Under the pieces are notes generated by a model that saw only the letters and a program-made list of their open reading frames with translations, was not told the DNA's origin and made no database searches. Made by a program: the position numbers and the translations under genes. DNA of 63,298 bases, counting the filler, from Neolecta irregularis DAH-3 (lineage: Eukaryota), in the NCBI GenBank assembly GCA_001929475.1. It is 4 parts of 4 records of this genome, joined end to end, with 100 filler letters (N's around TTAATTAATTAA, not from the genome) between each part and the next. Parts side by side here need not be neighbours in the genome. Positions count along the whole stretch, not along the records: positions 50,421 to 63,298 come from LXFE01000522.1; 3 more parts are not named here. One strand, written 5' to 3'. Positions 28,801 to 63,180 of the stretch are shown here, piece after piece. Numbering within the stretch: position 1 is the stretch's first letter; every line of letters begins with the position of its first letter.

Positions 28801-30705
28801 AAGAGTTTGTGGTTGCTGCAGAGGTAACTTGGTAGCTAAAGTGTTGCTGACCCGGGTAGGTTGACAAAGGTACCGATCTTCTCAAAATGCAGATCTCAAT
28901 AGATGGCAAGACATTTGCACAAGCTCGTTTTCCACCTGATTTTACAATGGGAAATGGACAAGCATATACTATTCTTGACTCGGTTACAAATTCTATTTTT
29001 ATGCACGTTACGACGAGCTCTCGATTAGGTTCTGAATGGGGTGTTATACTCAAGAGTAATTCGAATGGAACTGATTATGTTGTTTCTTTGGATTCAGTTA
29101 ATCGAGATGAAAAAGGTTATGTCGATTTTGAAAAGATGCAAGGGATTGAAGGGGTTGCTGTTGTCAATGTTGTCATGAACACAGCTGATGCTGTCGGAGG
29201 TGCCAAGAAAAAGTTGAAGACTATGATTACGCATAATGATGGTGGCGAATGGACTTTTCTCACCCCGCCGAAAAAAGATGCCCAAGGAAACAGTTTTGAA
29301 TGTTCTGGAGGGGTGAGACATTTATTCCTCCATTTTCTAAAGTTAGCTCGAGAAATGTTCTTTGAATCTTCATGGCTATACAGAAAGAAAGGATGAACGG
29401 GATACTTACTCGTCTGGCTCTGCTGTGGGTTTAATGATGGGTGTTGGCAATGTTGGTGAATCATTGTCTGCCTATCTTGATGGTGATACGTTCTTGACGC
29501 GAGACGGTGGGATGACTTGGTCTCAGGTGCACAAGGGTGCCTATACATGGGAATATGGCGATCAGGGCGCGATAATCGTAATTGTTATCGACGATAAACC
29601 TACCGATAGCGTTCTCTATACTCTGGACGAAGGAAAATCATGGACAGAATACAAGTTTAACCAAGATAAGGTGAATGTTGTGGATATCTCCACGTTACCA
29701 TCGGACACCAGTCGCAAATTTCTGCTCTTTACACGTGCAAGTGGCCAAGACAATTTCGGTACTGTTCAATTGGATTTTACGGGCTTGACGGACAAACAAT
29801 GTACCCAATTATGTTGCCAGAAAAGTGTTAATCTTGTAGGTAGCCTGAAGCCGGATAATCCTGATGACGATGATTTTGAACTTTGGACTCCTGGCCATCC
29901 ATCCAACGAAGACAAGTGTCTATTCGGTCATCAAATTCAATACAATCGAAAGATTCCCGATCATTTATGTTACATTGGCCCCAAGATTGCTCAACCTCAT
30001 ACGATTCTCAAGGACTGCGCTTGCTCGAGACAGGATTTTGAATGGTATGTGAAATAATAGTCTGATTTTTGACCTCGAGTGACTATAATTATCGACGAGC
30101 ATCTGATGGATCATGCGAACTAGCACCTGGTGCGCAACCTCCCGATCACCAAGAACTATGCAAAACGAATAAAAGCACTGTAGAATGGTACGAGCCTACT
30201 GGTTATCGCAAAATACCCCTTTCAACGTGTGTCGGTGGCAAACAACTTGATAAGAGCAGCTCGCATCCGTGTCCAGGGAAAGAACAAGAATATAAAGAGG
30301 GTAGAAAAGGGCTTTCTGGATTTGCATTTTTCTGGATTTTTACATGTTGCATTGCGACTGCTTTCGGTACTGGATGGTGGTTTTGGAATAGGTCGCATGG
30401 AAAGTTTGGGTAATTCGGATTACTGTTATGGAACTAATTGGGGTAGCCGTATACGTCTTGGAGAAGAGCGAGATCCACCGGGGTATATTAGGGTACCTAT
30501 TATTGTTATATCTGCAGTGATTGCAGTTGTTGCGGCACTGCCTTTGATTGCGCAAAGTGTATATTCTTGGGGGAGAGCCAAGGTTACAGGGCAGAGAAGG
30601 TATACGACTCGTGGATCTTTTGCACGGAGCGGGTATAGTGTGTTGCCAACTGACGAGGATTCTGGGTTGTTTGGAGATGAAGAGGATGAAGAGGATGATG
30701 TCTAG
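25805..30705 (+). CDS. VPS10: Vacuolar sorting receptor Vps10 (two VPS10 domains, TM, acidic tail)
   Basis: Signal peptide MLLRGWFALP; repeated SxDxGxTW boxes; KSNSNGT..DFE twice; GYRKIP 10CC modules; TM and YSVL tail. Confidence 0.95.
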
Positions 30706-31068
30706 TGTCGATCTTGCTAGTTAAATTATGCAGGTTATCATTGATTGTTAATTGATATTATCTCGCTTCGGCAATCATCGGTCAATCATAACCATATCAA
30801 TTAATTGACATCTCTCATAATCATATCAGTCGATCATAGCCATACGAGTAAGTATCATGTACAATTCATCTCAGTCAATGAAAATATTCAATAATCAGCA
30901 GCAACGCCAGATGGGCCTCTAATCAAGTGAAATGAAAAATGAAAGGCAAAATGAAAAAAGAACCACGTACACCAACCAGATCACCAAGAAAAAAGAAAAA
31001 CAAATCACATATATCACATCTCCAAGAAGAAAGAAAAGAAATCACAGCACCAAGGAAGAATAAAGAAA

Positions 31069-31818: not shown

Positions 31819-31918
31819 NNNNNNNNNNNNNNNNNNNNNNNNNNNNNNNNNNNNNNNNNNNNTTAATTAATTAANNNNNNNNNNNNNNNNNNNNNNNNNN
31901 NNNNNNNNNNNNNNNNNN
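31819..31918. other. Assembly gap with artificial TTAATTAATTAA six-frame stop linker
   Basis: N run-TTAATTAATTAA-N run. Confidence 0.98.
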
Positions 31919-36791: not shown

Positions 36792-36891
36792 NNNNNNNNN
36801 NNNNNNNNNNNNNNNNNNNNNNNNNNNNNNNNNNNTTAATTAATTAANNNNNNNNNNNNNNNNNNNNNNNNNNNNNNNNNNNNNNNNNNNN
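36792..36891. other. Assembly gap with TTAATTAATTAA linker
   Basis: N run-linker-N run. Confidence 0.98.
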
Positions 36892-50320: not shown

Positions 50321-50420
50321 NNNNNNNNNNNNNNNNNNNNNNNNNNNNNNNNNNNNNNNNNNNNTTAATTAATTAANNNNNNNNNNNNNNNNNNNNNNNN
50401 NNNNNNNNNNNNNNNNNNNN
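50321..50420. other. Assembly gap with TTAATTAATTAA linker
   Basis: N run-linker-N run. Confidence 0.98.
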
Positions 50421-50727: not shown

Positions 50728-51783
50728 ATGCCTCCTGCAAAACGAAGAAGAACTCTAGTACCCTTTGTCAGGCAATATACTCTGATCCCTAGAACCCAAC
50801 TCAATCCGCAAACTATCTAGATGTGACACCTAGACGTCGACAAACGGAAGGACACGTTTCGGATGGCTCGGACGATTCAGAAAGATTACCACACTCTAAA
50901 TCACAGTCTAATGTTGGGCTCGTCTGTATACTGCTGACAGTAGATCGCAGGTGCAAGATTACTAGTGCGCTATTCGTTGGCCAAGGAATTCACGCATACA
51001 CCCTTCACTCGAGACCAAGCCAACAGTACAAAAACCAACATCAATACAACTAACTCTCAGCTCTCCTGAAAGAAGTTGGCCTCCAGAGGAGTTTCAAAGC
51101 AGTCAAAGACGAAGCAAATAAAATCATGAAAGATGCCTTTGGAATGGAAATCGTCGAACTCGACCCGAAAGAACGATATTTATCTGCTCCTCAACAAAGA
51201 AAAGGTACCACCTTGTTTGCCAAAAACACTTATTGATTCAATAGTAGCTGCTAACTCGCACTCTCAAAAAACCCCAGGCGGAAAATCAGGCACTGTGAAA
51301 TTCTTTATTGCTAGAAGCATTCTTGCGCAGAGATTCAGGGATGCGGTGATTCCTGTAGACTCTGAAGCCGAAGATCTTGGAAAAATCTTCTTAATTGTAT
51401 CGTTGGTATATCTCAATAAAACCGAGATGCCAGAAGGTTATTATTCGACTTGAAATACAAAGTTGACTCGGATTTAGATATTCTCATTCGATATCTGGAT
51501 AAATTTATGCCAGAAGAAGGCGCCAAATTGTTTTTGAAGAATCGTATGATATCGGGGAAATACCTCGACTATCACAAAGACGTCAATGGAGATTTGATTT
51601 ATCATGTGGGACCTAAAGGAAAGGTATTGATTGATTCATCATGTGGGACCTAAAGGAAAGGCATTGATTGATTCGAAGCAAATGGTAGGATTGATGCATG
51701 AAATATATGGAGCATCTGCACCCGAAGATCTCGCGAAGCGCATCATGGATGCGATGGGCGTTGAAGAGCACATTAATGACTAA
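50728..51783 (+). CDS. NSE3: Smc5/6 complex MAGE-domain subunit Nse3
   Basis: RLLVRYSLAKE..TPFTRD, ANKIMKDAFGMEIVEL, GKIFLIVSLVYLN, YHVGPKG. Confidence 0.78.
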
Positions 51784-51830: not shown

Positions 51831-52360
51831 TCAGATCTTTGTGTGCCAGTTTTCAGTATGGGTAACTTTACATGTGTGACAAGGGCAAATGAAAGCTTCA
51901 ATAGGCCTACCAATACTGGAAGATACTTCTGGATTTCGTTGAATAAACTTGGAAACCCATTTACGTCCAAGGGGAATATTGTCTCCATTCATAACCAAAA
52001 TTCTTGTCGCCATTTCTCTCATACGGGTATGTGAGGGAGGATATCCTTGCATATCTTGTTCAAGTATCCATTGAACAAGAAACTCCTCTTGTGGTGGTGT
52101 CAATCGCTGGTTATTTTGTTGGCTAATTGGACGATTTGTTAGGCCCTGGATTCGCTCGATTAGTGTAGATTGTATGATTCCATATGCGGCCGCTAGGGCT
52201 TTTTGCGAGGTAAATGTTCCCGAATCGAGATCTTCAATAGCTGATTGAATTATTCTTTCACGGATATCCATTTTAAAAGAGCTGGTGGTGGAGAAAAACC
52301 TTTATTCATTATATATATTATATATTTATATGGTGTCGGAATGGGGGGTGTCGGTACGTA
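51831..52360 (-). mobile_element. Truncated pogo/Fot1-like (Tc1-mariner superfamily) DNA transposon
   Basis: HTH-psq and CENP-B-type HTH (ALAAAYGI..STL..R, QRLTPPQEEFLVQWI, LGRKWVSKFIQRNP); no DDE domain; TIR-like end TACGTACCGACACC..CCGACACC. Confidence 0.88.
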
Positions 52361-52565
52361 CGCCGCTGAGCTTATTGTATCCCTCAAACGCATGGCAAGG
52401 CCCAGGCAAAGATATCAAGCTGGAACATTATAATATTTAAGGAATTGAGTATAGTACATAAAGGGAGCGGATAGTCATTCTCGTATCTAAAGCTAGAAAT
52501 AATCTTGAATTATTCCTACAGAGGTCTCACTCACACTTGGGTTACAACTCTCACTCTACCATAAA

Positions 52566-53625
52566 ATGTCTACGCAAATACCGCCTGGTGAAATTGGCTT
52601 TGGTCTCATGGGAATGACTTGGAGACCTACCCAGACTCCAGATGACCAGGCATTCGCAACTATGAAAGCTGCAATTGAACGCGGTGCGACGTTTTGGAAT
52701 TCCGGGGAATTTTACGGACAACCAGAACCTACATTGAATCTTCAACTACTCAGTCGATTCTTTACGAAATATCCAGAATATAAACAAAAGGTCTACTTGT
52801 CCGTAAAAGGGGCCGCAAACCTCGAGACTCTTCAACCTCAAGGGAAACCGCAAGAGGTTCGAAAGAGTGTGGAGAACATCATCAACGTCGTTGGTGGAAA
52901 ATACATTGATATGTTTGAATGTGCTAGAGTTGACAAGAGTGTGCATGTCTAGCCCTTTAGGAAATACTCTTATTCCGCAGTCCTATTGAAGAAACTATCG
53001 GTGAACTCGCCAAATTAGTCAAAGAAGGCAAGATTTCCGCGATATCGCTATCGGAATGTAATGCAGGGACCATTCGACGAGCGAGTAAAGTCCACAAGAT
53101 ATCTGCAGTTGAGATTGAATTCTCTTTATGGAGCACTGAAGCTCGAGATAATGGAGTTCTTGAAGCTTGCAAAGAACTAGATATTCCAGTCGTCGCTTAC
53201 AGGTTTCCTCTTCTTTCTTCTGGCTTGTGCAGGATTTATTTGATAGTCCCCTCGGACGAGGATTTCTCACAGGTAAAATCACAAAGTTTGAAGATATCCC
53301 AGAGGGCGATTTTCGTCGATATATGCCTCGATTCCAACCACAAATGTTTGACCAAAACATTAAACTTGTAGAGAAAATCACGACTTTGGCTCAAAAGAAA
53401 AATTGTACACCAGCTCAATTGGCCCTCGCCTGGATTCTTCATCAAGATCAATGGATAATTCCCATTCCAGGATGTACCACTCCAGAACGATTACATGAGA
53501 ATATGGACTCGTTAAAAATTTCCCTGTCAGAGAACGATATGAAAGAAATTGAAGAAGTTTTGGCTACTTTTCATGTAAAAGGTGAACGATATCCAAATAG
53601 TGCCAAAATACATCTCTGGGGTTGA
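52566..53625 (+). CDS. Aldo-keto reductase (pyridoxal reductase-like)
   Basis: IGFGLMGMTW, FWNSGEFYG, LSVKG, IDMFECARVD, SPLGRGFLTG, TPAQLALAWI, IPIPG. Confidence 0.93.
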
Positions 53626-53647
53626 ATATCTCTAGCCATCCAGCCAG

Positions 53648-53761
53648 CAAAACTTCTTCAATTTCTTTCATATCGTTCTCTGACAGGGAAATTTTTAACG
53701 AGTCCATATTCTCATGTAATCGTTCTGGAGTGGTGCATCCTGGAATGGGAATTATCCATTG
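53648..53761 (-). repeat. Inverted duplication of AKR coding sequence 53449-53562
   Basis: 114-bp reverse-complement match with one mismatch. Confidence 0.95.
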
Positions 53762-54300
53762 CTGTGCTATGCAATATCTCGTTCCCTTTAATGCTTCAGT
53801 GGATTAGATGACCAGGACCTCGCGATACACTAAGCCGTTATTCCTATCCTTTTCACAGTGAAAGTAGCATTGCAAGCCATGCAATAGTAAGGTCAAATAT
53901 ATATCCAGCAAAAGCGCCAGTTAGATCTTTAAATTAAAGATGTTGAATCTACAGTAATGTAGAATTGACATCGTAATAACATCTACAGCTGTTTTCTACA
54001 GCATTGGAAACACTTGATGGTTGACTTGTAGAATCCATGAATTCAGGGCATACTTCATTATAGAACCATTCAAGGAGTCGTACTGCCGTTTAAAATAATA
54101 AAAAGTCATACAATCGAGGGATTGTTCAAGGGTTTGTGTGAATTTCAATTATAATATATGGCTGGACAAGGGCCAACAGAGAAGGTACATTTACAAAAGA
54201 TATGATTATTTTTTGGGTCGAATTCGAGGCACAAGTGGATGTCGTAATGCTGTAGTCATGTATAGTGGTAACCCTCAAAATAAAATTTCCCGACCTTGAC

Positions 54301-55318
54301 ATGACTTTATATCATATGGACCTTTCAGCTTCTGTACAGGGCCTTCGAGAGCAACTCGAAATGCTCAATCTTTCGACTAAAGGACATAAAGATGTTTTAA
54401 GACGACGCCTTCGTGAAGCGAGAAAGAAATCTCAAAAGCATGTTCATTTCAGGACTGATGGTCTTGTTGAGGTTATTGATGACAATTCGCCTAGGGCAAT
54501 CAGAAAGCACCAACCGAATGGCTTGGATTTGAAGCAATTGTGAGTGAATAAAATTGTGGTAATTCTTTGGTTGACTTGAAGCTGAGACGATATCTTTTGT
54601 TTATGGATTTCGAAGCCACTTGTATTGAGGGACATGGCCGTAATTTCAAACACGAAATCATCGAGTTTCCGTGTTTGATATATGATATTGAGCAGCAAGT
54701 AATCATCGACGAGTTTAAAACACATGTACGACCTTTGGAAAATCCAATACTGTCAGATTTTTGCATTCAGCTCACGAATATCCAACAGGTATGTTTCAAC
54801 CGGGACAACTGACCTTGTAGAGCGACGTAGACCAAGCTCCTACATTTTGTGAAGCTTTGGAGCTGTTTGAAAGATTCTTGGACAAGCATGAATCCTTGTT
54901 CGACCCTTCAATATTCTCTGTGCCTGTATCGCAGAGGTCACGGCAGAGGAAATGGTCTGGAATTGAGCGCAATTGGGCATTTGCCACTGATGGTCGATGG
55001 GATATTGAGTTGTTTCTTATTCAGCAAATGGGCATTGAGAAATTACCATACTATTTTTGTGGACCATACGTTGATGTTCGAGGGCTGTTTTCGGATTTTC
55101 TGCGCGAAAAACGTTGTTCCTTGGTCAATATGCTTAGGAAATGGGACTTGAAATTTGAAGGAACTGAGCATTGTGGGCGAGATGACGCATTCAACCTATC
55201 AAGAATAGTCTCTCGGCTCATTCAACAAGGATGCATTGTAGAGGCCAATCGGTGGATCCAACCTGACAAGACCCGGGGATGGATAATACCACGAAGATAT
55301 CCGCGTTATAAAGAATAA
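54301..55318 (+). CDS. ERI1: ERI1-like DEDDh 3'-5' exoribonuclease with SAP domain
   Basis: SAP LREQLEMLNLSTKGHKDVLRRRL; MDFEATC, EIIEFP, VRP..NPILSDFC.QLT.I.Q, TDGRWD, FEGTEHCGRDDA. Confidence 0.9.
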
Positions 55319-62931: not shown

Positions 62932-63063
62932 TCAAGTATCTTTCTTTACTCTTTCGTCAAAGGCAGGGTGCCCAGTATAAGCCTGATTACAATGCAATCC
63001 AATTATAGTTATATTCACTTATCGCCATTTTCCAATACAACCGAATCTTTGGAATATATTTAG

Positions 63064-63180
63064 CGCGCGTTTGGTACGCACCACATTTCATAAAATATGG
63101 CTTTTTAAAAAATTGGAATTTCAGGCGCGCGTTTGGTGCGCACCACACTTTATAAAACAATTAGGCGCCTGTTTGGTGCG
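63064..63180 (+). repeat. Three spaced copies of GCG(C/T)GTTTGGT(A/G)CG-like motif
   Basis: Copies near 63064, 63127 and 63165; the first two extend about 30 bp (..CACCACA(T/C)TT(C/T)ATAAAA). Confidence 0.7.

Follow-up and report, generated by a model that had tools for sequence, protein, structure and literature searches.

A local inverted duplication of the coding end of a PLR1-type aldo-keto reductase gene in Neolecta irregularis, probably made by one-step template switching

In Neolecta irregularis DAH-3, a PLR1-type aldo-keto reductase (AKR) gene, hereafter PLR, is followed by an inverted and nearly perfect copy of 114 nt of its own coding end. We find it probable, with some reserve, that this is a young local inverted duplication, produced by a one-step template switch, that it has no selected function so far and that it lies in what is probably the 3′ UTR of the PLR1 gene, which is intact. 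Within this explanation, the path of the switch, the young age, the location in the 3′ UTR, the formation of dsRNA and the lack of function are what we infer. The locus lies in a window of 63,298 nt, the whole stretch of DNA that was analysed, and all positions below are those of the window (Table 1).

Table 1. Features of the PLR locus and its surroundings, in window positions.
Feature	Position	Strand	Basis or remark
Tc5/pogo transposase fragment, upstream of PLR	51834..52220	-	PF03221, E 1e-10
Terminal-repeat-like end of the Tc5/pogo relic, about 190 nt before PLR start	52337..52374	.	Alignment with the ends of elements on C3066, C71 and C3919
PLR exon 1	52566..52942	+	Gene model; PF00248; alignment with fungal PLRs
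PLR predicted introns	52943-52980 and 53203-53246	+	Boundaries of intron 1 placed by alignment to homologues
PLR exon 2	52981..53202	+	Gene model; PF00248; homologue alignment
PLR exon 3, C-terminus intact and conserved	53247..53625	+	100% to P0001; homologue alignment
Left arm	53449..53562	+	38 whole codons of the PLR CDS, residues 254-291 of P0001
Loop, 85 nt	53563..53647	+	Final 20 codons, stop and 22 nt post-stop
8-bp direct repeat, first copy	53625..53632	+	Flanks insertion; 8 nt or more by chance 1.07%
Probable first switch point	53633..53647	+	4 nt complementary to 53563-53566, then 11-nt stutter-like filler; switch reading inferred
Right arm	53648..53761	-	Reverse-complement copy of 53449-53562, 113/114
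Probable return point: 11-nt filler	53762..53772	+	No source within 52337-55300, ≤2 mismatches
8-bp direct repeat, second copy	53773..53780	+	Same 8-mer as 53625-53632
First poly(A)-signal-like hexamers post-stop, candidate 3′ end region	53896..54102	+	Motif scan; motif presence, not use
eri1, next gene, SAP and DEDDh 3′-5′ exonuclease	54301..55318	+	PF02037, PF00929; 100% to P0121, named eri1

A repeat search ranked the two arms as the top inverted repeat of the window (114 nt, 99% complementary, 85 nt apart), and direct comparison gave 113 identical positions out of 114; both agree with the original prediction, which had also placed the stop codon in the loop. The sole mismatch, at 53475 (T in the gene, C in the copy), falls at the third position of a Cys codon (TGT/TGC), where it is synonymous. 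In RNA it gives a U-G pair, so that the 114-bp stem claimed earlier is unbroken over its whole length and present in the assembly. The stop codon occupies 53623–53625, and the right arm begins 22 nt later, a spacing that had been proposed beforehand and is borne out by the gene model.

At the assembly level, the inverted repeat is confirmed. The locus is single-copy in the genome assembly (G000): a search with 52500–54100 returned nothing beyond the locus and the inverted match to itself, and a 24-nt pattern taken from the arm, searched genome-wide with as many as three mismatches allowed, matched the two arms and nothing else. The spacer downstream of the copy is unique in G000 as well. No match to the arm of at least 17 nt was found elsewhere in the 733 kb and seven other AKR loci that were searched, so that no target in trans is evident in this DNA.

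The host gene had been called an AKR; PF00248 and its homologues narrow this to a PLR1-type aldo-keto reductase, that is, a pyridoxal reductase by predicted activity. The gene model built here has three exons and 325 codons, with a PF00248 match in every exon. The domain is full-length in the protein, whose closest named relatives are pyridoxal reductases. Exon 3 is identical to P0001, which is named pyridoxal reductase of N. irregularis DAH-3, and the full-length protein shares 47–54% identity with eight fungal-type homologues, several of them bearing that name. The C-terminus, encoded in the loop, aligns with nine homologues; the gene is therefore complete, and the loop lies in its native orientation. 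The start of P0001 lies 14 codons later and its intron 1 differs, giving EILLFRS where homologues read VD-x-VP; the predicted intron 1 of Table 1 fits the homologues better.

Among the AKR proteins of eight of the nine AKR-bearing contigs, the next-best was only 30% identical to PLR, which therefore seems to be the only PLR1-type gene, and apparently the sole such copy in the genome. The same comparison, over those eight contigs, speaks against a second PLR paralogue as donor of the copy. Repeat-directed mutation was considered as well, as the one difference between the arms could be a C-to-T change in a CA context; a single site is no proof, and CpG is not depleted in the gene (CpG observed/expected 0.96, versus 0.92 overall). 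Reading the copy as an antisense exon is unsupported: on the minus strand an AG precedes the copy, but no GT follows it.

Two hallmarks of template switching were found at the locus. An inverted, near-perfect copy lies within a few hundred bases of its source (113/114, 85-nt loop), and the return to the original strand is marked by the 8-bp direct repeat, with a 4-nt primer site at the other joint. Template-switch events can yield inverted plus direct repeats, as described in a study in which two switches, of 28 and up to 83 nt, are both shorter than the 114-nt arm seen here (bioRxiv 10.1101/2023.04.19.537475). The first 11-nt filler, before the copy, is made of near-tandem 4-mers, and for neither filler was a template found nearby. 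A shared word of at least 8 nt occurred in 1.07% of 20,000 random pairs of windows set equally far apart, and in 1.03% of 10,000 composition-matched pairs; since the 8-mer had been spotted by eye before the test, a value of about 1% overstates its strength, and the repeat is suggestive only.

In the proposed sequence of events, synthesis would have halted just past the stop codon and been re-primed on the opposite strand at 53563–53566, with stuttering that produced the first filler. The 114 nt of coding sequence would then have been copied backwards, before a return 8 nt behind the point of departure left the second 11-nt filler and the direct repeat, for a net insertion of 148 nt. Read-through transcripts would form a 114-bp stem cleavable by Dicer, with some siRNA and a mild damping of PLR1 as plausible by-products. 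A 23-nt loop pattern, used to look for an independent copy of the locus, had no match among metagenome contigs, and neither a second isolate nor a close relative was found; the pre-insertion state is therefore reconstructed rather than seen.

Fold-backs were surveyed in 733,149 bases of G000 (32 sequences, about 5%), a non-random sample composed mostly of long contigs with RNAi, AKR or kinase genes. They are not common in the sampled sequence, in which long contigs may under-represent them. Twelve inverted repeats of at least 20 bp within 1.5 kb were detected, with arms of at least 40 bp in eight and at least 80 bp in two. Eight of the twelve belong to repeat families or are ends of elements: six recur on other contigs, and two form one element, which has at its start the end sequence also seen in the Tc5/pogo relic upstream of PLR. 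The remaining four, with arms of 22, 25, 53 and 114 bp, are single-copy in the sample, the PLR repeat being the longest single-copy one in the 733 kb.

A long inverted arm was found in none of 80 homologous metagenome loci (the best 80 of at least 600; 39–54% identity, most 39–43%), and six of these loci held self-palindromic spans of 44–80 nt, with arms of about 40 bp at most. Together with its rank among the single-copy repeats, this points to a young one-off at PLR rather than to a common artefact or a conserved element. The arms differ at one site, so that the repeat is young or homogenised. The probable lack of function is read from this youth and non-conservation, the homologues compared being distant.

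The RNA of 53430–53800 is predicted to fold at −219.1 kcal/mol (z −25.2), and none of 100 shuffles did as well. It thus holds the long near-perfect stem of 114 bp that is expected of an hpRNA or endo-siRNA precursor, in a genome that encodes the two proteins also expected, Dicer and Argonaute. A check of the genome for both had been proposed with the original prediction, and RdRP genes were found besides. The one Dicer-like gene, on contig C2718, carries helicase motifs, a dimerisation domain and two RNase III domains. The genome search gave 12 Piwi matches on five contigs and 13 RdRP matches on four (C3998, C71, C313 and C891), some of either kind with internal stops, of which the RdRP locus on C891 has many. 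By comparison with S. pombe, which has a single RNAi set, the Neolecta toolkit is larger.

The 5.8-kb contig C1759 (L043) bears two diverged Argonaute genes tail to tail; a third lies on C1235, and a decayed relative of one of them on C1168. The opposed pair on C1759 was considered as a further fold-back and set aside, as the genes are diverged paralogues (75% over 68 nt).

A scan for nine poly(A)-like hexamers detected none between the stop codon and the copy. One variant, AATACA, occurs earlier, 18 nt short of the point where the stop codon ends; downstream, hexamers start 271 nt after the stop codon and include ATTAAA at 53933 (+308) and AATAAA at 54097 (+472). As these lie only beyond the copy, the copy is probably in the 3′ UTR, where the original prediction had put it, and transcription through it is the likelier case. 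The longest predicted helix depends on where the transcript ends: 11 bp for an end at 53647, 53 bp at 53700, and 113–114 bp for longer transcripts. With Dicer, Argonautes and RdRPs encoded, and no poly(A)-like signal before the copy, the hairpin of the PLR1 mRNA is a plausible Dicer substrate, and the insertion probably makes a Dicer-competent stem in that mRNA.

From such a substrate it is some way to active self-silencing, in which the PLR1 mRNA would be both precursor and target, Dicer would cleave the stem, Argonaute/RdRP would reduce PLR1 output substantially, and chromatin silencing might reach the promoter of eri1. We consider this unlikely, although the unbroken stem, the Dicer, Piwi and RdRP genes and the adjoining eri1 all favour it, and the stem may also disturb 3′-end processing. 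The gene is intact, apparently single-copy and free of CpG loss, the repeat is very young and not conserved, and no trans target came to light in the 733 kb and seven AKR loci. The experience with S. pombe bears on both sides: hairpin siRNAs are reported not to silence protein-coding genes stably in the wild type, and weakened poly(A) signals, which would speak for self-silencing, are reported to enable siRNA-directed silencing (PMC8253403). Post-transcriptional loss of the hairpin mRNA would be a separate route from stable silencing. Self-silencing by the PLR1 hairpin is putative, and the original interpretation as a whole is partly supported.

The gene next to PLR gives this idea a further twist. 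The best PDB matches of the eri1 protein are ERI1, and eri1 starts 539 nt past the right arm, on the same strand as PLR. Fission-yeast Eri1 is a negative regulator of heterochromatin assembly, according to a title cited in PMC8912903. One could picture a self-targeting RNAi allele at its birth, in which the PLR1 mRNA would be diced in cis and the siRNAs or chromatin marks would reach the promoter of eri1, at a distance of 539 nt, and damp it as well. As Eri1 is a limiter of RNAi, damping it would give a cis-linked positive feedback on silencing strength. We regard this scheme as very unlikely, and the adjacency of the two genes may be due to chance.

The opposite outcome, a real DNA repeat that is inert at the RNA level, would arise if the mature mRNA ended before the copy or early in it, so that little dsRNA was made. 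The AATACA hexamer and the short 11-bp helix of a transcript ending at 53647 speak for it. It would require, however, a 3′ UTR of at most 22 nt, and a transcript reaching 53700 would already hold a 53-bp helix; moreover, given the way Pol II terminates, the nascent RNA would contain the copy anyway. Its chance of being correct is small.

Slightly smaller still is the chance that the repeat is an artefact of assembly or library, either a fold-back chimera or a mis-resolved repeat. G000 is indeed a fragmented short-read assembly (14.18 Mb in 4,542 contigs). An artefact would nevertheless need two novel joints, both with non-templated fillers, and a base difference between the arms; the 733 kb show no excess of fold-backs, and the reading frame is correct through the loop. 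A published N. irregularis assembly was made from TruSeq paired-end DNA at 199-fold coverage with Velvet, in a description that mentions no amplification step (PMC5309816), and we assume G000 to be comparable. In such a graph, many reads should support both joints, and only the direction of the loop could be ambiguous, which the reading frame settles. A look-up of 335 sampled words in sequencing runs pointed to two runs and to no RNA run: a share of 0.98 was present in run X1, a possible source of this DNA, and 0.75 in run X2, above the exon-only share of 0.52. These shares are no evidence on the joints: the words spanning them make up 1.8% of the query, as much as the shortfall in X1, and other missing words could account for that shortfall just as well.

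A footprint of transposon activity is very improbable; the end of the flanking gene would have been copied while the break left by an excision was being repaired, and the 8-bp repeat would be a target-site duplication. The repeat does flank the insertion, and DNA transposon relics are common in the genome, with one about 190 nt upstream of PLR, but the ends of the insert share just a 4-nt inverted match, the flank is single-copy, the target-site duplication of Tc5/pogo is TA and not 8 bp, and the opening of a hairpin leaves arms that abut, with no 85-nt loop between them. A MITE or other non-autonomous DNA transposon was rejected, as dispersed copies are absent, one arm is host CDS, and the 8-bp repeat flanks the right arm only, in an insert whose ends share 4 nt. 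Two further classes were discarded. Small inverted triplications resemble the PLR insertion as replication-error products of similar scale, with segments of about 150–160 bp and a short spacer and junctions; they are described as DUP/IN/DUP structures with three copies, whereas PLR has two copies and only 8 bp directly repeated (PMC13334657). As to known miRNAs in Rfam, nothing exceeded its gathering score; the best match, MIR8562, reached 94.4 bits against a cut-off of 211 and scored similarly on both strands, as any long hairpin would.

The probable template-switch duplication has one of its closest likenesses in the hairpins described by Monttinen, Frilander and Loytynoja (bioRxiv 10.1101/2023.04.19.537475): a local inverted copy made in one step, a perfect stem, possible direct repeats and a transcribed host gene. 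Theirs are primate miRNA stems with a preferred length of about 35 bp, enriched in introns and proved by ancestral reconstruction; the PLR stem is 114 bp long, has one coding arm and is known from the derived allele alone. In budding yeast, inverted repeats are reported to cluster in 3′ flanks (PMC2908449), and inverted repeats are also reported to expand by template switching near promoters (PMC13100816), so that the class is already known in fungi. A literature search, run on titles and the openings of abstracts with most subscription papers outside its scope, retrieved no account of the PLR locus, nor of any fungal gene that naturally carries its coding end a second time in inverted form.

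Plant small-RNA genes such as MIR161 and MIR163 are said to be born by inverted duplication of their target gene (the model of Allen et al. 2004), and rice Lgc1 and Antirrhinum niv-525 are reportedly natural dominant silencing alleles made by inverted duplication. The original prediction had likened the PLR hairpin to such a birth; the likeness is fair as regards raw material and breaks down in that the hairpin is not a separate locus. Lgc1, niv-525 and maize Mu killer come with genetic proof of silencing, whereas PLR keeps a complete ORF and its silencing is putative. In Mu killer, as might be the case here, read-through over an inverted gene copy makes a hairpin RNA; that hairpin is about 4 kb long and silences a transposon in trans (PMC3440606). 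The Drosophila hpRNAs Nmy and Tmy (PMC10292708), like the plant MIR model, share with PLR a young long hairpin homologous to a coding gene in a host with Dicer and Argonaute. They are, however, separate non-coding loci with trans action and proven small RNAs, whereas at PLR the intact gene itself supplies one arm and no second target is evident in the DNA searched. At most, then, the PLR hairpin would work like a hairpin-RNA precursor of the Mu killer or Nmy/Tmy kind.

Should the hairpin be transcribed and diced, the locus would be a snapshot from the wild of the first step in the birth of a small-RNA gene by inverted duplication, in a lineage near the fission yeasts for which the literature search found no small-RNA study. 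It would then allow a direct test of whether a perfect dsRNA stem derived from its coding end can be tolerated by a gene that is still intact, and of whether siRNAs made in cis break through the resistance that coding genes show in S. pombe, where the hairpin cassette is small enough to be rebuilt. If it is not diced, the locus is still a clear single case of a long template-switch insertion, of modest interest.

Other repeats were noted in the window and in the survey. The Tc5/pogo end family makes short inverted-repeat elements on C71, C3919 and C3066 (177-bp arms, two pieces). A 37-bp tandem duplication in the upstream gene (51594–51667) is another duplication that is both small and young, within 2 kb of the hairpin. 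At 63063–63157, the 33-nt end of another repeat family is present twice; inverted pairs formed by this family occur on C1203 and C318. Positions 1–130 of the window, set off by a 10-N gap, recur at about 98% at 30627–30753, close to the other end of the same contig, possibly a scaffolding quirk; the other long repeats of the window are accounted for by the 100-nt N spacers with a stop-codon core (31819–31918, 36792–36891 and 50321–50420).

A second single-copy long hairpin was seen at C2625:40183–40323 (L046:183–323), with 53-bp arms (49/53 identical) and a 35-nt loop, between a NudC-like gene, named by eye from its translation, and the next ORF. All four differences between its arms are transitions, three of which give G-U pairs on the minus strand, and its fold has a z of −14.9. 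It is a candidate for an older small-RNA precursor.
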